Part shown: positions 20,676-59,010 of the stretch, one piece after another | Layout of the letters: the number at the start of each line of letters is the position of its first letter | Position numbering within the stretch: the stretch's first letter is position 1 | Assembly (NCBI GenBank): GCA_045837725.1 | Contig: JBEWZL010000236.1 | Span: forward strand, 62,001 to 126,000 | Source of the DNA: Vermamoeba vermiformis | Taxonomy: Eukaryota | Direction: 5' to 3' | DNA: 64,000 bases | Made by a program: the position numbers and the translations under genes | The notes under the pieces: generated by a model | Databases searched by the model: none | Told to the model about the DNA's origin: nothing | The model's input: only the letters and a program-made list of their open reading frames with translations

Positions 20676-23600
20676 TTAATCCATGTCGACGTCGTCGGGA
20701 TTGAACGAGTCGACAGAAGTGGTGCTCTTCTGATCCTCAGCCACTTCTTCTTCGGGCTCAGGCTCTTCACTGCGCGGCGTCTCTTGTGGCGAGTCATTGT
20801 GCTCAGAGTGACCGCCTTCAGCTTGTTCGCGAGCCAGTTCTTCGGCCAAGAGTCGCTCCTCCTCTTCGAGCAAGCGATCCTCTTCCTCTTTCTTTTTGCG
20901 CTCCTCTTCTTCGAGCAGACGTCGTTCCTCTTCGAGTAGACGTTCTTCTTCGAGGCGATGGGCATCCTCTTCTTCACGTCTCAAGCGCTCCTCCTCTTCG
21001 AGCAGACGGCGCTCTTCTTCAAGTAAGCGCTCTTCCTCTTCTTTGCGCTTGCGTTCGTCCTCTTCCAACAACAGGCGCTCTTCTTCGAGCAATTTCTCTT
21101 CCTCTTCTTTGCGCTTGCGCTCCTCTTCTTCGAGCAACCGTTGCTCCTCGGCAAGCAACCGATCCTCTTCTTCTTTCTTTTTGCGCTCTTCCTCTTCCAG
21201 AATACGTTGTTCTTCAGCCAACAAGCGTTCTTCTTCGAGTCGCTTGGCTTCTTCAGCTAACAAGCGATCTTCTTCCTCTTTTTTCTTGCGCTCTTCTTCG
21301 GCAGCAAGTTTATCAGCCTCCTCTTTCTTCTTGCGCTCCTCTTCTTCGGCAGCGAGTTTATCAGCTTCCTCCTTTTGTTTTTGAGCTTCCTCAGCGGCCA
21401 ACTTGTCCGCCTCTTCTTTTTTCTTTCGTTCTTCTTCTTCAGCTAACAAGCGATCTTCTTCCTCTTTCTTTTTGCGCTCTTCCTCTTCGACCGCAAGCTT
21501 GTCGGTCTCTTCTTTCTTCTTGCGCTCCTCCTCTTTCTTCTTGCGCTCTTCCTCTTCGGCTGCAAGTTTATCGGCTTCCTCTTTTTGTTTTTGAGCCTCT
21601 TCGGCGGCAAGCTTGTCAGCCTCCTCTTTCTTCTTGGCTTCTTCAGCGGCCAATTGATCTGCTTCCTCTTTTTTCTTGCGCTCTGCTTCCTCAGCTGCAA
21701 TCTTGTCAGCTTCTTCTTTCTTCTTGGCTTCTTCAGCCAAACGCGCTTCTTCTTCTTCTTTCTTTTTGGCCTCTTCTTCTTTACGTTGTTGAGCGCGAAG
21801 TTTCTTAAGCTGTGTCTTGCTCATGGGTTTGGCAGGCTCAGCGCTCTTAGTCGCTTCTTCTTGTTTCTTCTTCTCTTCTTCAGCCGCAATGCGCTCAGCC
21901 TCCTCTTTCTTTTTGCGCTCTTCCTCTTCGGCTGCAAGCTTGTCGGCTTCTTCCTTCTGCCTTTGAGCTTCTTCAGCAGCCAATTTATCAGCCTCCTCTT
22001 TCTTCTTGCGCTCCTCTTCTTCGGCAGCGAGTTTATCGGCTTCTTCTTTTTGTTTTTGAGCCTCTTCAGCAGCAAGCTTGTCAGCCTCCTCTTTCTTCTT
22101 GCGTTCTTCCTCTTCGGCCGCAAGCTTGTTGGCCTCTTCTTCTTTCTTTTTGGCCTCCTCTTCGGCTAACAAGCGATCTTCTTCCTCTTTCTTTTTGCGC
22201 TCTTCCTCTTCGACCGCAAGCTTGTCGGCTTGTTCCTTCTGCTTTTGAGCTTCTTCAGCGGCCAATTTGTCAGCCTCTTCTTTCTTTTGGCGCTCTTCCT
22301 CTTCAAGCAAACGTCGCTCTTCTTCAAGCAATCTCTCCTCTTCAAGTTTCTTCTGACGTTCCTCTTCTTCGAGGAGACGACGTTCCTCTTCGAGAAGACG
22401 TTCTTCTTCGAGACGTTTTTCTTCCTCTTCACGTCTCAAGCGCTCCTCCTCTTCGAGCAGAAGGCGCTCTTCTTCAAGCAAGCGCTCTTCCTCTTCTTTG
22501 CGCTTGCGTTCCTCTTCTTCAAAGAGTCTACGCTCTTCTTCGAGCAATCGGTCCTCTTCCTCTTTGCGCTTGCGCTCCTCTTCTTCCAAGAGGCGTTGTT
22601 CATCATCAACCGTGTGATCCGCTTCCTCTTTCTTTTTGCGCGCTTCTTCCTCGCGCTTGAGGCGGTCTTCTTCTTCCAATTGATGCATAATCTCTTCGTC
22701 ATCCAGATCGTCGACATCTTTCTTTGTGCCGTTCTCTTTGGCGTTATTTCTAGCCTCTTCTTCTTCGAGTTCGCGCAGTAACTCCTCATCGGTGGGCTCC
22801 TCTTGAGGGCGCTTTCTTTGTGCCTCCATGCGAGCCAAGGCCTCTTCCTCTTCACGAATAAGGCGCTCCTCTTCCTCGCGCCACTTTTCTGCCTCAAGGC
22901 GCTCGCGTTCACGACGTTGAGCCTCTTGTCTCTCACGCTCGGCAGCAAGACGCATTTCTTCTTCTTCACGCAACAATTGTTCTTCAATCTCTTCGTCGGT
23001 TAACTCGCGCTGTCTAATTGGAGCGACTACTTGGACAGGTTCTGTGAAGAGTTAGCCGTGTTGTATTAGAATGCAAGAGCTAAATACCTGACAAATCGTT
23101 TTCGCCTTCAGTATCGTGTTGGCGAGCACGAAGACCAGTGCCGGCAGTTGTCGGCTTCAACGTTGGCTTGTCTGCCTTGCCGAAGGTACCAGTGGCGTCA
23201 ATGAAAGCACGGCGAGGGCCAGGCTTCCAAGGATTAGCGGCCACTTGTTGCGTCATTTGCTCGATCACAGCTTCGTCCCAGGTGCGTTGATAATCAAAAG
23301 TCATTTGTTCACGCACGCGAGAGTGACGAATCTTGTCCTCTTCAGCGTCTTTCTCTTCACGAGCCAAACGCTCTTCATATCGATCGCGCAAGCGAGTCAA
23401 TCGCTCGCCAATCAATTTCTCCTCGCGCTGTTGTCGCTTGTGATTCAAATCGTCCCAGCGATTCATTCTGACGCGCAATCGACGCTCCATCTCTTCGGTA
23501 CGTCGCTTCATGCGCTCTTCAAATCGTTCTTTCTGTTTAATATACCCAGATTAGTATACAATCGTCAGCGACCAATTATACGCGTACTAATTGTTGAGTC

Positions 23601-25031: not shown

Positions 25032-28000
25032 ATGTCGATAGATGCAAATGATTCGCTGGTCGTAGATGACACCGAATCCACACTGTACCAAACAATTGCA
25101 GTTAAATATCAAAAAGCAATTAATTCACTTGCAGTTGATTGTACTGGTCAATATGCTGCGCTTGGAGGGTAAGAAAAATACTAGCAAAAATTAGTAAAAA
25201 TTGCTCAATAATTTCAAACAAATTCTGAGAGGCAATTATAACACCCTTACTACGGTTAATCGCTGTAATATCGATGAATAATATTAATACTATTCTTTAA
25301 ATAGAAAAAAAGGAATATACATTATAGATCTCGAAGAGCCTTGGGAGACATCCAAGACCCTCTATCAGAAAGGCAAGTGGGAGATATCAGTCGCGCAGTG
25401 GAATCCTCATCCGAGCAAGGCAAGTTGGATTGCGAGTGGCGCGGGCAACGACTTGCTCATTTGGAACTTGGAAGATCGACGCTCGGCGCTGCAAGGCATT
25501 GTACAAGCACATCAACGCGCAGTCGCAGACATCAATTGGAGTGTATTTGAGCCGAATATACTCGCATCCTGTTCCGCTGACACCTATATCAATGTGTGGG
25601 ACGTGCGAGACACGAAGAGCTGTTTGAAGATGCGATCCTTTTGCGCATGGACCGGTACGTGAGTGAAGTATAGGCACGCGCGTACTAACAAGTAGTGTAC
25701 TAGTGGGGGCATCACAAGTGCGCTGGAACAGATACAATCCGAGTCTATTGGCCTCTGCACACGACGGTGAAGTGCGGATCTGGGACATTCGCGTGAGTAG
25801 TACTCGACTCGAGATAATACAACACCGTTATTATGCACGCATTAACTCATTAACACATACACTAGCGCGAGGCAGCACCGATGGTCACCATCACCGCGCA
25901 CATGAGCAAGATCACGGGCATTGATTGGAGCTATCAGTCCGAGCACGAACTGCTCTCGTGCAGTCAAGACAAAACTGTCAAAGTGAGTGCTGTACCGCGC
26001 ATGACACCTGTCAACATGTCAATATGCGCAAGTGTCACTAACAGCTATTGTTGCTAGTTTTGGAATATTCGCACGCCAAATGTCTGTCAACAAACGCTGC
26101 AGACTGGCACACCTGTCGCACGAGCACGTTACACGGTACGTACATTCCTTATTAGGCAATAGTGGTCACGTGACAGCACTGACACCAGTCGCAGCCATTC
26201 GGCAAGGGAGTGATTACGATGGCTCAGCGCAGTGACTTCACGCTGCGACTGTGGGCCCTGAAAGATTTGAGCGCGCCCGTGCACTGCTTCATGGGCCACA
26301 CGGACATTGTGCAGGCCTTTGACTGGCGCGCAGTGGACCGACAAGAGGGCGATCTGTTCCACCAGCGCGACTACCAGCTCATCACCTGGGCCAAGGACTT
26401 GCATCTGCGGCTGTGGTCGATTGAGCCCGAGGTGTTGGACGAGATGGACGACAATCCCTCCAACACTCCGCGCAGCACGTCTGCGAGTGGCACTGCGCAC
26501 ATGAAGCAGAACGCCTTCAACTTGCTCGACGACCCCAACCTGATCACCAACTTTGAGCAAGAGCTGACGTACTTGGAGCAGAAACAGATCCCCAACATCA
26601 CCATTGAGGACGTCAATCTCGCCACGCGTGTGGTCACAGTGCTCATTCGTGTCGACATGCGCATCGTGCAGCTGCGCGTCGTGTTCCCCTCGCACTACCC
26701 CAACGGTGCCGCGCCGTCATTTGAGTTCTTGAACCTGACTTCGCTCACACACCGCGACAAGACCAAGCTCAAAGAGATACTCAGCGAGACTGCCAATCAC
26801 TACTGCGAGCGCAATCGACCCTGTTTTGAGGCCTGTTTGCGCCAAGCAGCTGTAGCGCTCAAGTCCGGTGAGATTGGCGGTGGCTTGGAGAGCGACGGAC
26901 TGACGCGCAGTTCACCGACACCTCTTTCACTGAACAGCGGTGGTGGCACACTCGAGGGACCGCTCATCATGCCCGACTTCACCAACACCATCAATCCAGC
27001 CCCTCCACCACGCACCACGAGCCCTGCTACAGCGGTGGACAGCAGTGACATGCGCGTGCCTTATCCGCGCACCTGTTCAGCGGTGTGGAGCGGCACTTCC
27101 AAGCTCGTGGTGTGGTTCAATCGCACGGCATTGCTCGGCAAGACAATGGCTGATTACAAGCGCAAGTTCGGCAGTGCTCCTGAAGTGACACGTGACAGCA
27201 AGCCACGTGATGTCATTTCAATCGCCAAGTACTTTTTTGGCACGGGCGACAATGATCTGTTGGCAGGAGATCACTTGATGAGCGACAATGTGCACGATCA
27301 CGTGGACATTGACTATTTTGGACCGAGCTTGAACATGCGAGGGCAGTCGAGTCTCAGCTCACTCAGCACGGCCAAGACATCGCGCGACCAGCTGGCCCTG
27401 GTGAGTGTGCGCGACATGTCAGCGTACATGCCGCTCTCAGAACACCTCGGCATTCACTACACGGTCAACTTCGACAAACAACTGCCCACACAGCTCTCAC
27501 GTCGCGAACAACTGTGTCACATCTGCGCACTCAACGCACAAGCAGCGCACAAAGTGGGCCGAGAAGATCTCGTGCAGACCTGGCACCTGATGAGTCACGT
27601 GATCGATCCCAAAGTGTACAAGACTCCGAACACGAGCAGGGACCGTGCCATGATGGTGATGCAAAACAACACAGCGGTAGTGCTGCCCTGGCCCCTGCAC
27701 CCCTTTGGTCGACACTTGGTGCTGAACATTCTGCGGCACTACGAACAGATGCGTGATGTGCAGACCCTCGCCATGATCAGCTGCGTGCTCGAACTCGCCT
27801 TCACACACCTCGCGGCGAGTGTTGAGAGTCCTGCCGCCGCTGAACACGAGCCTGCACAGCCCTCGCGTGCCAATGCCCCCAACACCCCCACGGTGAAGAT
27901 GAGCTCCACCACTACCTCGCTGATTGCAGACTACTTCAGCTTCTTCACGCAGAAGCAGCCGAGTCCCAAGCCCAAGTCCCACAACAACAACAACACTGCG

Positions 28001-28684
28001 ACACCTCCGCCCCCCTCGCAGTACAACAGCATGGCACAGCTGCCCGATGTCAGCAAGATCTCTGCCTCGCCGCGCGTGCCCAGCAAGAACTCGTGGTCCT
28101 TGCTAGAGCCGAGCAACACCGCGGCATATCATCAGTACCGCAAGTGCTACGCCGATGTGTTGTATCGCTGGGGACTGCTCAATGCACGCGCGTCAGTGCT
28201 CAAGTACGTCGAAGAGGCCTCAGAGTCGCACCAAGGCATTGGTACGTGTCAATCCATGCGTGACAGGTGTCATAATCATCAAGGGGTCATCCACTTACTG
28301 ACACTCGTCTTTGACAGATTTTGACATTTTGTGTCGTCACTGTGGCCGTGCCGTGAGCAGTCCGAATTGTCCGCACTGCAAGAAGAGTGCCATGACCTGC
28401 GCACTGTGTCACTTGCCTGTCAAAGGTCTGTTGCCGCACACACATATGACAAGCTGTGTATTCACCGTGTAATTTTCAGGTCTCTCGAGCTTCTGTTTGA
28501 CATGCGGACACGGCGGACACAGCCACCACATGCAGGACTGGTTCCGCACTGAGTCACTCTGTCCCTCGGGCTGCGGCTGTGCTTGTACGTACTCACCTGA
28601 TGTATTCGGCGCTGGTGCCACTCACTTATTTCCTTATTAGGTAAAGAGAATAATATGGCCCTCGCCACGGAAGATGACTTTTAA
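25032..28684 (+). CDS. WDR59: GATOR2/SEACAT subunit WDR59 (WD40, RWD, C-terminal RING-like zinc finger)
   Basis: WD repeats (ASQVRWNR..LASAHDGEVRIWD), RWD FPSHYP, RVPYPRTC, WPLHPFGR, DVQTLAMISC, YADVLYRWGL, and C-terminal CGHGGH..H..WF..CPSGCGC. The last exon is inferred. Confidence 0.93.
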
Positions 28685-31640: not shown

Positions 31641-34600
31641 ATGGACCCAACTCAAGCAATTGCTTGGCACGATGACAATATAGAGGACCATGAGTCAAAC
31701 GTCGAGGAGATCCCGCAGGTGCGTACAGTTTCAATATTATAGGCTGGTTAAATTATTGGATATTATTTTTGCTAATATATATTCCTTCGTCGCATACCAT
31801 ATTTCGCATTTAAATATTTTTCTAATTTTTAATTAGATTTTAGTCTCGCTGACAGTCAAAGATAAAGACAAGGTATTTGAGCTGCACGAAGGAACGCACT
31901 CAATAGGCAGAACAGCCGACAATAAAATAGTCTTGTCTTACGCATCAATTTCCAAAAAACACGCCTTGCTCGGTAAGTTCGTGCTCGCAGTGCTGCATCG
32001 CTGACCGTGCACATCGATCAGAGGTGTCCAAATCGAGCAACAACACGGTGTACTGCTTCATCACTGACTGCGGCAGTCTCAACAAAACACGGCTGTGTCG
32101 CAGTGACGATGAGAAGGGCATTGTACTCACGCCTAACACGCGCTACGAGGTACAGTGATGCGCAGGAGGAGTAGCCAGTGTCTGACAGTAGTATATTTGC
32201 AGATATTGCCTGGCTCCAGACTCGTCTTTGGCGATGTCACGTGTCAGCTGACTGATCACACGGCTGAAAAAGAAGTGGCACCTGTCACCACTGAAGAACA
32301 ACGCGTGCCTGACACGAAGAGCGAGAGCGTTGTATTCAAAGTAGTGCATTTGCTATGCGAGTGTGTGTGGCTGTTGATTAACGTGTTGAACAGAAGCCAG
32401 CGAGTCTCGAGGCCACACAGGCCTACGAAGTCACCGATGAAGAGCTGTTGAATGATCTCATGCACGAGTCGCACGATGTCGTGCCCAAACGTCATGCAAG
32501 CAAGTGGACAGAACACGCCACTCAGCCATACGATGAGAGTGAGAGCACCACACTCGGATCCATGAACAACACACTCGGCAATGCATCGCTCAAATCAGAC
32601 TCGAGCACACTGTGGTTCAAGAAAGACAAGCCGAACAAGGACGCACTGCCGAGCACACAAGCTTATGATGAAGAGTCTACCCAAGGACCTGAGAGAGCTG
32701 AGATCACAGTGATTGTCACTGCTCCCACTCAAGCGTATGAAGAACCCGCAGAGGACGCTGGGCCCAAAGATGCAGCGGCAACACAGGCGTATGATGAGCC
32801 GTCGAGTGAGGTGAAGCACAAGGACATCAGTGCCACACTGGCCTATGACGAGGAGAGTGATGTGCCCATGAAGGACGTAAATGCCACACTGGCCTATGAA
32901 GAGCCCTCTAGTCCCATTAAAGCTGCAGACAACAACGCGACTCAAGCCTATGAAGAGCCAGCGAGCCCTGTCAAAGCTGCAGACAACAACGCTACACAGG
33001 CTTACGAAGAACCAGCGAGTCCGATGAAAACAGTGGACAACAACGCCACACAGGCTTATGAAGAACCAGCGAGTCCCCCCAAGTTGATTGAGGTGAATGC
33101 CACGCTGGCGTATGAAGAGGACAAGTCCGCAGAAGACAATAACAACAATGCCACGCAAGCTTATGAAGAGCCGTCCAGTCCGAAACTTGCGGACAACAAC
33201 AACAATAACGCTACTCAAGCTTATGAAGAGCCGTCCAGTCCGAAACTTACAGACAACAACAACAACAATAACGCTACTCAAGCCTATGAGGAGCCCGTCC
33301 AACCAGCAGACACTCACAACAATGCTACTCAAGCCTACGAAGAACCAGCGAGCCCCGTCAAAGCGGTGGACCACAATGCTACTCAAGCCTATGACGAGCC
33401 AGAGCACAATCTACCGGTGACACCCAGCAAGACCACTAAAGTTGTCACGTTTGCTGAAGTGAGTGTCACACAAGTGTACGAAGAGTCGGCGAGTCCAATG
33501 CGCGAAGATATGGACACCAACAATGCCACACTGCCGATCATTGAGCAGCACAGTCCACCTGAAATAGACCACAATGCCACACTGCCCATTGCAGAGCACG
33601 ACAGTCCTGAGTCAAATGAGCGGCACACAGACAAGATGGAGATTGACAGACCAGAGACCACTCACAAACGCGATGATGAAGAGCCATCGAGTCTGTTCCA
33701 CGACAGTCATCCGCGCGACAGACATGCGCAGCCTGTCAATCCTGAGACACGTCACTCTGACAGCAGTGACACGCAGGGCCCAGCACAGAGTAAAGTGACA
33801 GTGAGCGCTAGCAGCAAAATTACAACTTCTATTGTAGAGAGCATGCTAGACAATGAAGCGACACTGATGATAGTAGACTCGACTGAGATCAAGAACAACG
33901 AGAGCTTGGAGGCCACACTGCGATTGCCCTCGACTCCTCCCCTGCATGCATCAGCTGACTCGCTCTCTGATGAGGCAGTTGAGTCCATGCCTTCCGATCT
34001 GTGGTTCATCAAGCACAAAGGTATGAATGCTATTCCTATCCGAGCTCTTGCTCAATTGTGTTGCCAGATAAAGCATCAGAGGAGGCAGCAGACCAATCAC
34101 CCGCCTCAGAGCACACGAACACCCGTGCTGAACTGGCTCCTTCATCGCACAGCAACGAACAAAACAAGTTGCCAGCACAGGAACACAACACCGATCAGCA
34201 CACTGAGAGCCAAGCAGCTGTGTCGGAGAAAGAGTCGCACGACAACAATACCAACACTACAACAGAACCACCACCCAAATCCAGAACTAAAGGCCGCACC
34301 ACTCTGCGCAAGTCACTATCTCCGACACGTGCACGAACTAAGATTGAACCCGAAGAAGGCATGCAAGAGGATTCAACGGCCAATACGGACAAGTACGCAC
34401 TTGCATTGATCGAAAGAGTAACTAATGCTGTTGCAGGACCCGCGGCACTGAAGACAACGTCAAGACTGAGGCCCAGCAGAGCATTGCCACAGAGACGAAG
34501 AGCATACGAGGACGTCGCAAGAGCAAGAGCGAAGTGAGCGAGTCACCGCACGAACACACCGCTGAGTCGCACAACTCGAACAAGCGCACTACTCGTCGCA

Positions 34601-52408: not shown

Positions 52409-55400
52409 TTAGAATCTGTTCTTGTTGCGCTGAGTGAACACGTTGCCAGGTCGACGGTTCTGACCGCGATAGTTGGCTTGATTGCGCGGACCACGGCGCT
52501 GATCTGAGTAGCCCTGTTGACCCGATTGTTGTCCTTGGCCGGGTCCGTAATTGCGCATGCCTCTGTTGTCGCGCTCTTCTTGCTGATCGCTCTCGACCAA
52601 CACACCGGCCTTCTCGCCAAAGTGCAGTGCGAGGTACTGCAGTCTGCTGGGCTCAGCGCGGTGCAGCACGAGAATGCTGTTAGGCTGATCCCACGAGGCA
52701 TGCAACTCCTCGCTGATGATCAGCTTGCTGACAATGCTGTGCACGACATTGGTCGGCAGTTCAAACAAGGACGCGAGTTCTTTGAGCGAGATCGAGTCGT
52801 AATAGGCGCTGTACGTGAACAGATAGGTGCGCAGACCTTCTTCTTGCAACTTGCGACGCAAGAGCTCTTTGATCTCCTTGTCGTTGGGCAACAACTTCCA
52901 AATGTTGAGACCGAGCAGCAAGTCTGCAGCTGCGTGCCAGTCACCCTTGAGCAACAGCTTGCTGGCTGCAATCACGTGCTCGCGCGTGTTCTCGGGGGGA
53001 CCCATGAATACTTGACGGTCGTACCAATCAAACACGCGTCTAAAGTTCTTGCTGATCACCTTCTTCTTGGTGTCAAAGGCATTGAGGGCCATATTGGGCA
53101 CTTCTAGCAGCATGGCGCTGATCAAATGCACGGTCTCGATCAGTTCCAAGTTGATGTGCATGTGATAGGGGATCTGACGACGACGTTCTTGACGCTCTTG
53201 TTCGGGGGTCTTCTCTTGATGACTCTTGATATTGATGCCCTGAGCGAGCAGTTCTTTCATCTTGCCACCCGAGACCAGATCCGTCAAGCACTGGTGCGCA
53301 TCGAGAATGCGACCGTGACGGAAAGCAGCGAGGCCGAGCTGCGTCATGGTGCGATTGAACAAGATCTGCGTGGGGATGTCTGCGTGTTGAATCGTGTCTT
53401 GCAAGTGACTCATCAGCAACAAGTCGCGTGCAGCAAAGAAGCGATCGTGTTGCGCCATAAAGTAGATCTGCTGCAACATGGCAGTGCGCTTGAGTCGATC
53501 GTCACCCCAGCGATAGATCTTCTGACACAAGTCCTCCACCTCTTCAGTGAGGGACGAGTGCGCTGACACGCCGCTAATGTCCACAGCGACGGGCACTGCA
53601 ATCACGGTGGTGTTGCTGATGTGATTCAGCGTGCTCATCAGCGCCTTGTTCGAGGCTCCGTCGCGCGTGACCAGCACCAGCGAGGCTGCGTTGGCTGCAG
53701 GGACTTCGCTGGGCTTGGCAGCACGGCCAGTGTCGCGCTTGTAATAGAGGTGCTCCAATCTGCGCGCAGAGATGCGAGCCAATCTCTCGTAGATGGAGGG
53801 ACCAGTGGTGGGTGCGACACCAGCACTCACTTGCGACTCGTAGTACTCTTGCACGAACTTGGCGAGCTTGAGGAACTGACTCTCATCGCCCAATCGGACG
53901 CGGTAGTCGAGCGAGGAGGGATCGATGAACTGCAAGCTCTTGATCAGCTCGGCGTCCAACTTCTCGACGCTGGTGGTCAAGTGGCCCATGACTTCATTGC
54001 TGCGCACGGCTGTGCTGGCACTCAACGAGGCTGGAACACTGGTCGAGGCTGCGAGACCGACAGAGGCAGCCGAGGAGCGCAACGAGAAGTCCTCGTCCTC
54101 GTTGTCTTGCTCCCAGTTGAGCAGCGGCGCTTCTTTGAGCGTCACACTCTCACCCAACTCGTTCATGGTCGCCACGGCACGCGTCAGGTCGTTGAATGCA
54201 CTGCGCCACATGGTGACGGGCATGTGCGAGGCAGAGTTGGCGGTGGCATCGAACTGCGCGTCAATGATCGCGAACTGAATGCGCATCACTTGCGCACTGC
54301 CCACGGCCTTGTCGAGCAAGAAGGCTAGCTTCTCCACTTGCTTCAAGCGATCGTAGCTCTTCTTGCCACGCTGCGCCAAGAGTTCTTTGAGCTTGGCCTC
54401 GACCTTCTCGTAGTTCCAGACCTCTTCCTTCTTCTTCTCCTCGCCCGCTTTGTTCTTCTCGTCCTCGTCCTCGGTCTTGGCGTCAGCAGGCTTCTTGTCG
54501 TCCTTCTTCTTGTTCTTGTCTTTCTTGCCACTCTTCCACTTGTCCTCTTCAGAGTCGCTCATATCCGAGTCCTTGTTGTGCTTGTTGTTCTTCTTAGTGG
54601 TGGACACAAAATCATCGTCTGAATCTGCATCAGGATCCCAGTCATCAGAATCAGAGTCGCTTTCATCGCTGTCACTCTTAGAGCCAGGCTTCTTCAACCA
54701 CTTGCTAATGTCTTTACCACCAGCACCAATAGTAGGGCCTGCTTTACCGGGCACGGCAGCTGCCTTCTTGTCATCTGTGACAGCAACTGCTACGCCGCCC
54801 TTTGTGGCTTTCTTCTTATCGTCCTCTTTTTCATCATCGCTGTCTTGAGGGTTCTGTTGCAAATAAAATATTAAGTGTTGCTCAATTGAATAGAGATAAA
54901 GCTGATGCATGTTTTTTGTTGGATCTGGTGGTGCATCTTAGGATCGATTATTACCTTTCTGAAATCATCCATGGCCTTTTCAATATCAGGTCGTGATTTG
55001 AGCCACTTCTTTAACTTTTGTTTCATTGTATTGAGGGACTTGGCATTGATCGAGTTCATTTTTCGATCTTTGTTTTCAAAAGTCTTCTTCATAAAATCCT
55101 CAATTTGAACCATAATGCGAGTATAAAATCGAGGAACTGCTTCTTTCTTAGTAGAGGTGTTCTTGCTCAATACTTTGTTGAGCTTTTCCCACTCTAGATT
55201 CAGTTGCGAAAAAAATATTAATATTTAAATGTAATGAATATGCTTCATTAGTACCTGTATAGATCGCGTTCCAATCATTAATATTCATTTGGTTTTGGAT
55301 TTTTTTGATAATTTTCTTCATCTCATCCTCCTTCTTTTCAGAAGCCGATCTGACCGTGCGTTTTTCTTCTTCTTCATCGCTCGAGTCTAGATCGACTTGA

Positions 55401-55586
55401 TATCTGTTGGCAGGCTTAGGCTTAGGAGTCTCCTTCACCTCCTCTTCACTCTCACTCTCAGACGAGTAGAGATCTTCATCGCTCGAATCTTCTCCGGGCA
55501 CTGTTTTCCAAAATGACGACACTGTACAATAGAGACCAATTAATTATGCAACTCTTAGATTTGAGCAAGCTCGTGTGTTACTTACT
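52409..55586 (-). CDS. EIF3C: Translation initiation factor eIF3 subunit c (start codon split by an intron)
   Basis: MSSFW..SSDE, KRTVRSA, INDW, NAKSLNTMKQKLKK, RGKK, ARDLLLMSHLQ, QILFNRTMTQLGLAAF, PYHMHINLEL, GPPENTRE, PCI domain. Confidence 0.96.
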
Positions 55587-56117
55587 TTTTAACAATATTG
55601 ACAAAATAACTCGAACGCAGTGCTGGGCCTAAAACCCCCGCATTCTCAGAGAATAGAGAATCGAGCACTATAGAGCTCGTGTTTGGTGCATCATTCTTCG
55701 TTCTATCGCAGCTCTGCCCTTGTTTGTGCGAATACGAAGAACTGAACGAGAAAGACAGATCCAAGCTGGCCAGTTCTTCAGACCGAGAGCCGGGCAATAG
55801 CCAAGTACACTAATACATATTTGATTATAACGAGTATATACTTGTGTCTACTGTGTCCTGTCACGCTCGGGCTTGACGTGGATCTGACAGAATCAAATCA
55901 GAATCAGCGCATTGCTACCGATTGTACAGCACCTACCCAATGCTGCCAGTCATGGTGCATCCATATACATGCTTCTCGGTACTATAGTATCGCACCTCGG
56001 GTGATAACGCGAATCTTTTTTGTGATTATTATTGCGCTAACTACCACGCACGAGAACACAGTTCAGTCCCCTCGCGCACAATCATAATAACAGCAATTAA
56101 TACCGCATTAATAGTCA

Positions 56118-57969
56118 ATGGCGCTCTGTCGTGCGAAGGCCAAGTTTGATTATCAAGCGAGAGGTGCGAATGAGCTGGGCTTCAGCGCAAACGAAGAGAT
56201 TATCGTTTTGAAAAAAGACGATCGTGGTCTGTGGTGGCAAGGCTCGATTGGCAACCGCAAGGGCTGGTTCCCAGTGAGTTATGTGGAGGTCGTAGCTGAC
56301 TTCTCTGCTGGCACCGCAAAGACTCCACCACCTCCATCTCCTCGCAGCACTGAAAACGGCGTGGCACGAACTACTTCCTCTTCTAACATGGTTCCAGGTA
56401 TGCCATTAATTCGGAGAATAATTTGGTTCGCTTGATGACTATACGATTCTTTATCTTAAGAATTTTTTAAAAGCAGTAAATTTCTCGTTTAAATCCGCTA
56501 CGTTAATAATCTCGAACGTAAAGCGTTTAAATCCCGAGATAGCCTCTTTTTAAATTATTTATACTGCGTGTACTTATAATTATCGCCAATACAGCGAGCC
56601 CGCGTCAAGGATTAACGGCGTCATCTGGTGTACCCAAACAACCCACACCTGCGCCCACACCAACACCTGCACCCTCCGTGGAGAAGTCTAGCAAGAGACG
56701 TGGCAGCAATGTTGGTGGTGACAATGATGAGCACCCACCTAAACCCAAAGGAGCTCCACAGAAAGAAAAAGGCAAATCCACCACTTACTTGCGTCTCCAA
56801 GTAGTTGGAGGACGTGGATTTGATCGTAAGTCATCGGCGTTGAAAACGACCATTGTCATTAGATTAATATAATTGCCCGTTATAGCCAAAGGAGAATCTC
56901 AAATATTTATCTCCATGCTGGATCTGCACTCGAACAAAGAACGCAAGTTATTTAATACGGCCAAAGTGACCAAGACTGCAACACCGACCTGGAACGAGGC
57001 TTTTCAAGTGTGAGTACCGCTGCGATGCACTACGTGTGAATCCTTAGTGACATGTATTGCAGCAATGTGCAGGACGCAGAGAGTCAAGTGCTGCTGTTGA
57101 AGCCCAAGAAGCCGAGCATTGAATTCAGATTCCCGCTGCGCAGCTCTGAACGCAATTACGATCACCCGAACTGTCAATACAAGTGGCATCAAGTCACCAT
57201 TCCCGGCACCTCGCAGGTGGTAGAACTGCGCGTGTACATTCAATTCGTTGACACGCGTCAATACGCAGCTCCGACCAACTTCACGCACAACACGCACGTG
57301 GGCTGGACGAGTGGCGGCGGATTTGACATTCGCAACATCCCCCCGCAGTGGAAAGCGCTGTTCGAGAAAGCAGGCATTGCGCAGAAAGATCTCGAGAACC
57401 CCGAGACCGCAGAGATGTTGTACAACGTCGTGGCCAAGTACGAGGCAGACAACGGCGTGTCCATTGCCCCGCCCCCTCCTCCACCACCAGGCCCCACTGC
57501 AGTCAAAGCAGCACCCCCGCCACCACCCACACCAGGCGTCAAGAAAGCACCGCCCCCTCCCACCACACAACGCACCCCACCTCCACCACCCAGTCCGCGC
57601 AACAACGTGCCCCCTCCTCCTTCACGTCAACCCTCCACCACACAGCGCAACAACTACAGCTATCAACAGGAATATCAAGAGGAGTACCAAGAGGAGTATC
57701 AGGAAGAATATCAAGAAGAGTACCAAGAAGAGTATCAAGAGCAGCCCTCGTCAGGCATGTCCTCACTCGCTGCTCAATTAGCCGCTGCCAAGCTCAAGAG
57801 CTCAGCGAACACAGCGTCTTCTTCTGCATCTTCCACCAAGGAATTGACGCCAGAACAAGCCAACAACTTGACGGACTTGCTGTCGCGAGCCATGGACAAA
57901 CGACGTGATTTCCTGGAAGAAGAGGCCCCGAATGAGGACTCGTGGTCTGACTGGGACGATGACAGCTAG
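56118..57969 (+). CDS. WASP-family actin nucleation-promoting factor with SH3-C2-CRIB/GBD-polyPro-VCA architecture (exons 56118-56397, 56595-56825, 56886-57009, 57063-57969)
   Basis: SH3 AKFDY..ELGF..WW.G..GWFP.SYV; C2-like LRLQVVGGRGF..PTWNEAF; GBD PTNFTHNTHVGW..FD..P..WKALF.KAGI; C helix LLSRAMDKRR; acidic tail WSDWDDDS. Confidence 0.88.
57661..57744 (+). repeat. Seven 12-bp units encoding YQ(E/Q)(E/Q)
   Basis: TATCAACAGGAA TATCAAGAGGAG TACCAAGAGGAG TATCAGGAAGAA TATCAAGAAGAG TACCAAGAAGAG TATCAAGAGCAG. Confidence 0.95.
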
Positions 57970-58059
57970 AACCCTTGTATTGTATATATACCTCTCGTAT
58001 TAAATCTATCGTTGTGATCACTTTACAGTTCTATGTACATGATATTGATAACGCGGTCG

Positions 58060-59010
58060 TTACTCATCGAGCACTTCTTTCTCTAATTGATCGCGCAAGT
58101 CTTCAGACACCACTTCAGTCGCAAACAGCTCCCAGTCCACATCCGCACGATTCGTTTCAATCTCGAAGAACTGTCGTCCTGTACAATGGTCAATCAATAG
58201 CTCTTCGTGCATTGTGTTGTGCACGTCACTCACCTGTCAATTTGACACCGCCTTCACTGGAGCTGAGATTGTTGTTGTTGCCCTTGCGTCGTTCAGCATC
58301 AAACTTCTCCTTCCACTGCACGAAGGACTCCATGGTGACGGGGTCGCCATCGCGCTCCTCGACAGTCAAATCGTCCTTCCAGTCAATCTCTTCTTCGTCC
58401 TCTTCGTCGCTGTCCAGCACTTCCTCTTCCTCTTCGTCACTCGCTGTTTTGCGCTGACCTTCACGCTGCACACTCAGATCGGACATGTGTTCCTAGTGCT
58501 AGAGGTGAGTAGCTGTCAGCACGACTCTTCGTACCGCTTACTTGAACATGTTGCGCGAGCAAGTAGATGGAGGGCATGCCAACATTCTGCTCGGCGAGTT
58601 CATTCACTTCTTGCAGCAGTTGTTCGCACAATTTGCTGGTAACAAATGTCTTGCCCTTGATGGTACTCAGTGTAATAATTGGTGCTGTTTGAGGATAAGT
58701 GCCGGATATGTCCACGGTCATAAGTACGCCAACTGTGCGCCAAAATTAGCGCAAATATTTTTAAAAAAAGGTACGTACCTTTGCTCGTATCCTCAGCGTC
58801 AATACTAGGCAGTAAAGTTATTTCGAGATGCTCTGGATCGATTACTGCAGAGAGAATGTTATTGAGGCGCATAGCGACGATAAATGTATTTACCATTGAT
58901 ATGCTCCATGAAGATTGATTGCAATGCTTCAACCTCCATTTGCTAGAATTTAGAAGTTAACACACCGCCTGAAGATCACAAATCTGTACCTTTTCCTCAG
59001 CAGGATCCAT
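58060..59010 (-). CDS. RWDD1: RWD domain protein RWDD1/Gir2 (DRG-partner DFRP2)
   Basis: EVEALQSIF, YPQTAP, AEQNVGMPSIY, GDPVTMESFVQWKEKFDAE, KLTG/RQFFE, VDWELF. Confidence 0.88.

Follow-up and report, generated by a model that had tools for sequence, protein, structure and literature searches.

We analyzed a 64,000-nucleotide (nt) stretch of the Vermamoeba vermiformis genome (contig JBEWZL010000236.1, positions 62,001 to 126,000 of the forward strand), hereafter the window, whose own numbering is used throughout. Positions 56118 to 57969 of its plus strand hold a gene for a WASP-family protein that carries an SH3 and a C2 domain in place of the WH1 domain of ordinary WASP. Judging from its sequence and from structural models, we put at roughly 0.7 the probability that this protein is a class I nucleation-promoting factor (NPF), namely, an autoinhibited activator of Arp2/3 gated by Rac and by the membrane, with the C2 domain in place of the basic region. 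The original prediction had read the parts as SH3, linker, C2, WASP-type GTPase-binding domain (GBD), polyproline, WH2-like segment, C helix, and acidic Trp tail, without a WH1 domain. Transcripts, Pfam and PDB matches, and full-length relatives bore out this order.

One expressed gene with four exons

The coding sequence is divided over four exons, at 56118 to 56397, 56595 to 56825, 56886 to 57009, and 57063 to 57969. Exon 1 carries the start codon, the SH3 domain, and the beginning of a Pro/Ser/Thr linker, the remainder of which lies in exon 2 together with the first strand of C2. Exon 3 encodes the middle of C2, including a K-x-T-K-T/PxWNE stretch. Exon 4 encodes the C-terminal half of C2, followed by the GBD, the polyproline region, a YQEE repeat, the WH2-like segment, the C and A regions, and the stop codon. 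All three introns have GT..AG borders (56398 to 56594, 197 nt; 56826 to 56885, 60 nt; 57010 to 57062, 53 nt), and the second and third lie inside C2. Joined in frame, the exons give 1542 nt, i.e., 513 codons followed by TAG, which agrees with the single four-exon gene that had been proposed. The 5' untranslated leader spans 56048 to 56117, as transcript contigs start at 56048 to 56051. In-frame TAA and TAG codons stand immediately 5' of the ATG, and inspection of the transcribed leader revealed no earlier ATG.

Transcription was assessed with Logan contigs from four public runs (X1, X2, X3, and X6), each from a different study, aligned to the window. The runs are recorded only as guessed RNA, and the case for transcription is made by the spliced contigs themselves. 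All three junctions proposed from the sequence were joined exactly in each of the four runs, with 197, 60, and 53 nt skipped at the predicted borders. X1, X3, and X6 each yielded one contig (1613, 1610, and 1645 nt, respectively) that runs from about 56048 to between 57968 and 58005 and covers the whole coding sequence; in X2, the three joints were bridged by two contigs. Since the contigs lack introns and have ends resembling untranslated regions, while the genome carries the introns, they are as expected of processed mRNA. Relative to the window, the contigs show 11 coding differences, distributed over exons 2, 3, and 4. All 11 are synonymous third positions, indicating that the gene is under purifying selection. 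The locus is thus a single expressed four-exon gene with one mRNA.

The original prediction had also considered that the SH3/C2 part and the GBD part might turn out to be separate genes. Such an arrangement, in which an SH3/C2 gene and an adjacent gene for a GBD and VCA (WH2, C, and A) region of the WAWH type are read as one, or an assembly artifact with the same effect, is very improbable. The observation that speaks for it is that the open reading frames (ORFs) of relatives often start inside C2 or at the GBD, with 36 of 65 family proteins carrying C2, GBD, and CA but no SH3. However, single spliced contigs run from the SH3 domain to the stop codon in three runs from three studies, and the fourth run bridges all junctions. 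Moreover, 17 full-length database proteins show the same order of parts, and introns 2 and 3 fall inside C2, so neither half would be complete alone. We therefore rejected the two-gene reading.

SH3, C2, and GTPase-binding domains

Pfam was run on the window protein exon by exon. The SH3 domain (56133 to 56291; amino acids [aa] 6 to 58, within exon 1) matched SH3_1 (PF00018) over aa 7 to 53 with an E value of 8.2e-14 and 51.4 bits, compared to a cutoff of 22.9. Against the PDB, it matched 87 SH3 sequences at an E value of ≤1e-5, with intersectin-2 as the best (5.4e-14); the best matches comprised the SH3 domains of intersectin, sorbin, Grb2, and amoeba myosin-I. The canonical ligand-binding residues are present. 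No WH1 match was obtained at an E value of ≤1 in any of the four exon translations. The spliced model matched hidden Markov models (HMMs) built from the family for each of the SH3, C2, GBD, and CA parts.

The C2 domain extends from 56786 to 57252 (aa 158 to 275), across introns 2 and 3, in close agreement with the span of about 56785 to 57250 given previously. In the window protein, Pfam C2 (PF00168) was seen in the exon 3 piece alone, at an E value of 0.063, which is below the cutoff because the two introns split the domain into three pieces. Support for C2 was obtained instead through relatives, the family HMM, and a fold search. Pfam C2 was present in 22 of 29 family proteins scanned, and relatives reached scores of up to 50 bits and E values down to 3.8e-13. 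The fold was examined on a relative of the window protein, P0212, which is about 45% identical to it over exon 4. The AlphaFold2 (AF2) model of P0212, built from a 50-row alignment, displayed the eight strands of a C2 domain, with a predicted local distance difference test (pLDDT) value of >90 over residues 300 to 430. Foldseek comparison of this model with the PDB returned C2 domains as the top matches (best E value, 2.3e-7; target-normalized TM score [TMt], 0.66 to 0.69), in the order Trichomonas C2 entries, PLC-delta1, Nedd4, E-Syt, and Munc13. Together, the profile matches and the model of the relative confirm the C2 identity of aa 158 to 275.

Which loop positions of C2 domains bind Ca2+ is general knowledge. 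The loops of the window C2 are rich in Lys. Loop 3 reads KPKKPS and contains no Asp, and D-x-D is absent from this place in every row of the family alignment. Loop 1 lacks the Asp-Pro typical of Ca2+-binding C2 domains, so the Asp clusters that serve as Ca2+ ligands are missing. Conversely, a KKT-type stretch before PxWNE is conserved in the family. The Lys-rich loops, the absence of D-x-D, and the conserved KKT stretch suggest that the domain binds acidic lipid in a Ca2+-independent manner.

About 8 residues, with no variation in length within the family, separate the end of the last C2 strand (aa 275) from the beginning of the CRIB core (aa 284). In WASP as in N-WASP, the place before CRIB is taken by the basic region, which binds phosphatidylinositol 4,5-bisphosphate (PIP2). 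The residues between C2 and CRIB in the window protein are not basic. Because C2 lies only about 8 residues from CRIB, at a fixed spacing and with Lys-rich loops, it would take the place of the basic region.

The same features bear on a different role for C2, as a protein interaction or autoinhibitory module packed on the GBD or on SH3, with membrane targeting supplied only by the prenylated GTPase. The loops without Asp clusters for Ca2+ would fit this role, and the conserved C2-CRIB junction of fixed length could equally mean a packed unit. C2 domains that make protein contacts are found among the Foldseek matches (the Munc13-1 C2A dimer, 2cjs, and Nedd4 C2/Grb10, 3m7f). Nonetheless, we regard such a role as quite unlikely. 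The abundance of Lys in the loops and the conserved KKT agree with a Ca2+-independent binding of acidic lipid, which is in part a matter of general knowledge. In the AF2 model of P0212, the C2-CRIB linker (residues 433 to 438) falls below a pLDDT of 50, giving no hint of a rigid packed unit. There is also an amoebozoan precedent. According to the accessible text of the report on the Dictyostelium formin ForA (PMC4598863), this protein has the order C2-GBD-FH3-FH1-FH2-DAD, its C2 domain binds PI(4,5)P2, and its authors propose that lipid and active GTPase jointly direct its targeting. Like the window protein as we read it, i.e., with a lipid-binding C2, ForA as described there is an autoinhibited amoebozoan actin nucleator with C2 directly before the GTPase-binding region. 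Unlike it, ForA is a formin and not an Arp2/3 activator, and its GBD is of the Diaphanous type and not a CRIB; the likeness is one of domain order and not a comparison of C2 sequences.

The WASP-type GBD lies at 57265 to 57441, with the CRIB core at 57277 to 57306 followed by a hairpin and three helices. Pfam PBD (P21-Rho-binding) matched exon 4 with an E value of 5.4e-13 over profile positions 4 to 54 of 59. All seven PDB matches of the exon 4 translation at an E value of ≤0.01 were WASP or N-WASP, the best being N-WASP (1.4e-15). As all seven sequences were WASP or N-WASP, with no PAK among them, we ruled out a PAK-type or Par6-type CRIB. The AF2 model of exon 4 of the window protein, built from a 37-row alignment, gave pLDDT values of 82 to 87 for the GBD helices. 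A scan of 78 proteins outside the family, taken from the top database matches, identified 54 proteins with WH1 and PBD, 20 with PBD alone or with WH2, 3 with PBD and PDZ, and 1 with SH3 and PBD. The GTPases that act on WASP in Amoebozoa are generally held to be of the Rac type, and Rac rather than Cdc42 is therefore the expected partner.

We built a GBD tree of 182 rows and 69 columns. Of the 201 starting rows, we had removed GBDs with fewer than 55 residues and those with more than 92% identity to a retained row of equal length. On the quick tree, the C2 family required 9 changes, of which the starred branches force only 2. The approximately unbiased (AU) test of a single clade for the C2 family gave a P value of 0.066, which neither establishes nor excludes a single origin. 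The tree does not resolve descent from WH1-bearing WASPs as opposed to WAWH proteins, and no donor or sister group emerges from it.

The C-terminal half and predicted regulation

A proline-rich region (57466 to 57627) follows the GBD. It contains three runs of at least 5 Pro (aa 348 to 388), as well as four SH3-ligand patterns, three of class I and one of class II. AF2 modeled the proline region of full-length P0212 with pLDDT values below 50. The ligand of the SH3 domain may be a partner protein or, from the motifs present, the class I and class II patterns of the protein itself.

A tandem repeat of YQEE (57655 to 57744; period of 12 nt, 6.8 copies, 82% matches) separates the proline region from the WH2-like segment. 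Its copies differ at synonymous positions, and about 6 copies are kept at the protein level. Shorter versions were seen at the same place in the C2-GBD relatives P0003 and P0213 and in the WH1-bearing WASP P0002. The repeat may be a lineage-specific acidic/Tyr motif.

The WH2-like segment (57763 to 57804) is degenerate. In the family alignment, the sequence SLAAQLAAAKLKSS occupies the position of the WH2 of relatives, and HMMER placed it against the second WH2 of N-WASP across a gap of one residue; taken alone, the aligned stretch is not significant. The original prediction had likened the segment to the Ena/VASP G-actin-binding motif, which it may resemble in spacing. A PDB search with 25 aa containing the segment gave no matches at an E value of ≤10. 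Pfam WH2 was detected in 11 of 29 family proteins in one scan and in 4 more in another. By alignment, the segment is a WH2 homologue minus one residue and the terminal hydrophobic position.

Downstream of the segment, the C (connector) helix (57865 to 57915) is marked by residues L269, L273, and A276 (exon 4 numbering), which vary little or not at all among 37 sequences. AF2 predicted a helix at exon 4 residues 269 to 284 with a pLDDT of about 80, amid otherwise disordered sequence. The acidic tail (57916 to 57966) contains two Trp residues, W506 and W509 of the full protein; W297 in exon 4 numbering is nearly invariant in the same 37 sequences. Thus, the proline region, the C helix, and the acidic Trp tail expected of a class I NPF can all be recognized in the sequence. 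With respect to WASP sensu stricto, the CRIB and the putative autoinhibitory helices are present, and WH1 and the basic region are absent. The window protein resembles WASP and N-WASP in its WASP-type GBD, proline region, C helix, and acidic Trp tail, as well as in the modeled placement of the C helix on the GBD. It differs from them in having SH3 and C2 where they have WH1 and the basic stretch, in its single degenerate WH2, and in the YQEE repeat between the proline region and WH2.

These features lead us to the following model. At rest, the C helix would be packed on the GBD, as in autoinhibited WASP. Binding of a GTP-bound Rac-type GTPase to CRIB would free the C and A regions, which would then activate Arp2/3, and the proline region and the WH2-like segment would supply profilin-actin and actin, respectively. 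C2, by binding acidic membrane lipid, would replace both the basic region and targeting through WH1 and WIP. The protein would fire only at sites that have both the lipid and active GTPase. The SH3 domain at the N terminus would recruit a proline-rich partner or bind the proline motifs of the same or neighboring molecules.

Structure predictions are consistent with the resting state of this model. The best structural match of the exon 4 model was 1ej5, the autoinhibited WASP GBD-C structure (Z score, 6.1; root mean square deviation, 3.5; 75 aligned residues). The match covers the model range 77 to 284, i.e., the GBD together with the C helix far from it in sequence. Of 50 chains, only 3 reached a Z score of ≥2, and all three were WASP or N-WASP GBDs. 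We also predicted a complex between the GBD (exon 4 residues 64 to 136) and the C/A part (256 to 301). The score was 0.41, compared to 0.18 for the best of three controls, which amounts to weak support. In the calibration of this score, 51 of 78 solved complexes attained the passing mark, as did 2 of 108 mismatched pairs; passes with scores of ≤0.60 were obtained for only 5 of the 78 solved complexes and for all 4 mismatches that passed (of 180). Three runs agreed in at least 85% of contacts, and the partner pLDDT was at least 60. The predictions indicate a likeness to autoinhibited WASP and not binding.

Several observations weigh against an autoinhibited, Rac- and membrane-gated Arp2/3 activator. 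The predictors were trained on the solved WASP structure, so a pass may reflect memory, and the Z score of 6.1 is middling and the complex support weak. The window C2 is divergent, as its exon 3 score and the 21.4 bits (cutoff, 22) of the C2 domain of P0212, the nearest relative, illustrate. The Ca2+-ligand positions were set by AF2 secondary structure and general knowledge of C2 domains and not by alignment to a Ca2+-bound structure. The EukProt transcriptome of Vermamoeba vermiformis gave no family member among the search matches, although its eIF3c was found. Finally, Pfam WH2 was not detected in the exon-by-exon scan of the window protein at an E value of ≤1, the AF2 helix of the WH2-like segment reached a pLDDT of only about 51, and the segment is one residue shorter than in relatives, the loss lying between the helix and the LK motif, and ends in LKSS versus LK[KR]V.

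The observations on WH2 would also fit a scaffold or GTPase effector derived from WASP that is an inefficient nucleator. In such a protein, WH2 would have decayed in the Vermamoeba lineage, CA might still bind Arp2/3, and the delivery of actin monomers would be lost or would proceed wholly via profilin-actin on the proline region. Along with the missing Pfam match and the one-residue deletion, the loss of the R/K-G and terminal V positions kept in relatives favors this possibility, as do the detection of Pfam WH2 in only 11 of 29 family proteins and the lack of a WH2 row for P0212 at an E value of ≤0.01. On the other hand, the amphipathic L-x-x-x-L helix and the LK motif are retained at the homologous position, and conservation extends to the C helix and the acidic-tail Trp. 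The 11 coding differences, all synonymous, include positions within the repeat and others shortly past the WH2-like segment. WH2 is short, and true examples are often missed by Pfam. On balance, we consider such an inefficient nucleator unlikely and favor an Arp2/3 activator as the probable function.

An apparently undescribed subfamily of lobose amoebae

A search with the C2 half and the GBD (139 aa) over 1.84 billion cluster representatives returned 663 matches at an E value of ≤1e-3. About 30 of the best 150 of these covered both the C2 half and the GBD. By Pfam, complete relatives with SH3, C2, and PBD are about 480 to 680 aa long. A profile search built from 13 members found 55 proteins at an E value of ≤1e-10 among 8000 scored candidates, 22 of them with precomputed C2 and PBD annotations. 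None of these 22 C2-PBD proteins originated from NCBI or UniRef, and the five NCBI-sourced matches were WH1-bearing WASPs or proteins with PBD/WH2 and no C2. Neither NCBI nor UniProt supplied a member in these searches, and an ESM Atlas query with P0016 gave no usable match.

We then ran the four family HMMs (SH3, C2, GBD, and CA) over 248 collected proteins. The family C2 was detected in 65 proteins, and all 65 also had the GBD; the set had been gathered with C2-GBD queries, which biases the statement that C2 never occurs without a GBD. All four parts were present in 18 proteins, the window protein included, and the remaining combinations were SH3-C2-GBD (3 proteins), C2-GBD-CA (36), and C2-GBD (8). 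Many of the shorter forms would be ORFs that start inside C2, as ORF calling on intron-bearing genes would give such products. There was no overlap between the 65 C2-family proteins and 72 proteins listed as bearing WH1. The 17 full-length database proteins with the same order are mostly encoded on mRNA-length contigs of about 1.5 to 1.7 kb. The nearest full-length relative, P0212 (676 aa), shares this order of parts and has a longer linker; its C terminus is very similar.

The four members with species names, from Pyxidicula operculata, Difflugia compressa, Arcella intermedia, and Flabellula baltica, all belong to Tubulinea, class Elardia. As Vermamoeba is placed in Tubulinea, class Echinamoebida, the family spans both classes. 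The original prediction had implied that the architecture was unique, which does not hold: it is conserved in Tubulinea, and 18 proteins, the window protein included, carry SH3, C2, GBD, and CA. The family is an apparently undescribed, conserved, transcript-supported WASP-type subfamily of lobose amoebae, present in public transcriptomes and, as far as our searches showed, unannotated.

The original prediction had also placed the architecture outside the described NPF classes, and the literature consulted agreed with this. The accessible text of Kollmar 2012 (PMC3298513) distinguishes three WAWH subtypes, namely, I, without a folded N-terminal domain; II, with CxxC motifs and a coiled coil; and III, with a long charged region. 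The window protein fits the definition of WAWH, i.e., a GBD, a proline region, and VCA without WH1, in amoebae. Compared by text description, however, none of the three subtypes has SH3 or C2. In that text, "C2 domain" does not occur and the sole mention of SH3 concerns BAR/IMD proteins. By the rule stated there, that a VCA region with a different N-terminal domain makes a new subfamily, the SH3-C2 front end would define a further WASP-family subfamily. The amoebozoan WASPs in the accessible part of Fritz-Laylin 2017 are likewise listed without an SH3-C2 architecture. Full-text searches, which had incomplete coverage and included Vermamoeba, Tubulinea, and Arcella WASP, found no paper on the combination of SH3, C2, and GBD. 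A WAWH-like protein among our own matches is P0049 from Dictyostelium, with a PBD at 36 to 89 and WH2 and no other domain. WAWH proteins reportedly include Dictyostelium WASP-B and WASP-C.

A more comprehensive proposal is that the gene is the first genomic, transcript-verified member of an undescribed "SH3-C2-WASP" subfamily dating to the common ancestor of Tubulinea. Such proteins would combine the sensing of lipid (C2) and of Rac (CRIB) with SH3/polyproline multivalency in one chain, replacing the recruitment through WH1-WIP and adaptor SH3 domains that animal and fungal WASPs rely on. They may be among the principal Arp2/3 activators of lobose pseudopods or phagocytic cups. We put this forward as a tentative suggestion.

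The WASP family is classified by its N-terminal targeting modules, each of which has so far corresponded to a distinct mode of recruitment and regulation. Here, a WASP GBD-VCA is joined directly to C2 and SH3, and the arrangement is conserved across both Tubulinea classes. If active, the protein would be a compact natural test case for the coincidence detection of lipid and Rac without WIP, PIP2-binding basic regions, or adaptors. It would also add a branch to the evolution of Arp2/3 activators, in amoebae for which the molecules of the motility machinery have received almost no study. Vermamoeba commonly hosts intracellular bacteria and giant viruses in the environment, and its phagocytic actin regulators are for this reason of practical interest.

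Shuffling of N-terminal domains in the WASP family is not without precedent, as WAWH and WAML proteins illustrate. As described in the accessible text of Kollmar 2012 (PMC3298513), WAML resembles the window protein in that a membrane-binding domain is fused to VCA; it differs in having an IMD instead of C2 and no GBD, and it was described from Entamoeba species. Similar variation was seen among our matches. P0159 (516 aa) has an N-terminal region followed by SH3, GBD, polyproline, WH2, and CA, without C2. P0124 (395 aa) begins with a long charged, coiled-coil-like region before C2 and the GBD, and P0077 (552 aa) has a divergent region that matches the C2 half of the query, followed by the GBD. 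Shuffling around the WASP-type GBD thus seems common. Several proteins of a further set (P0019, P0020, P0022, P0030, P0031, and P0043) carry two or three tandem PBDs, some with WH1 in addition, and P0043 has a RING finger before WH1 and PBD. The tandem-PBD proteins may be real multi-CRIB WASPs or fusions of gene models.

Elsewhere in the window, three long open frames of 675 to 791 aa (20676 to 23051 on the minus strand and 26183 to 28324 and 32382 to 34409 on the plus strand) gave no Pfam match at an E value of ≤1e-5. The upstream neighbor of the WASP-like gene (52409 to 55543, minus strand) encodes eIF3 subunit c, with matches to eIF-3c_N (E value, 1.3e-115) and PCI; an upstream exon piece at 55151 to 55543 also matches eIF-3c_N. 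The long ORF of the eIF3c gene shows 89% identity to a EukProt Vermamoeba vermiformis protein and 100% identity to an NCBI protein. The eIF3c and WASP-like genes are divergent, with about 500 nt between the start of eIF3c and that of the WASP-like transcript. The downstream neighbor (58060 to 58745, minus strand) has an RWD domain (E value, 1e-9) and a weak DFRP_C match and resembles RWDD1, a DRG partner. It converges on the WASP-like gene; X6 contains a separate contig at 57999 to 58182, and the 3' ends of the two genes lie within about 90 nt of each other.

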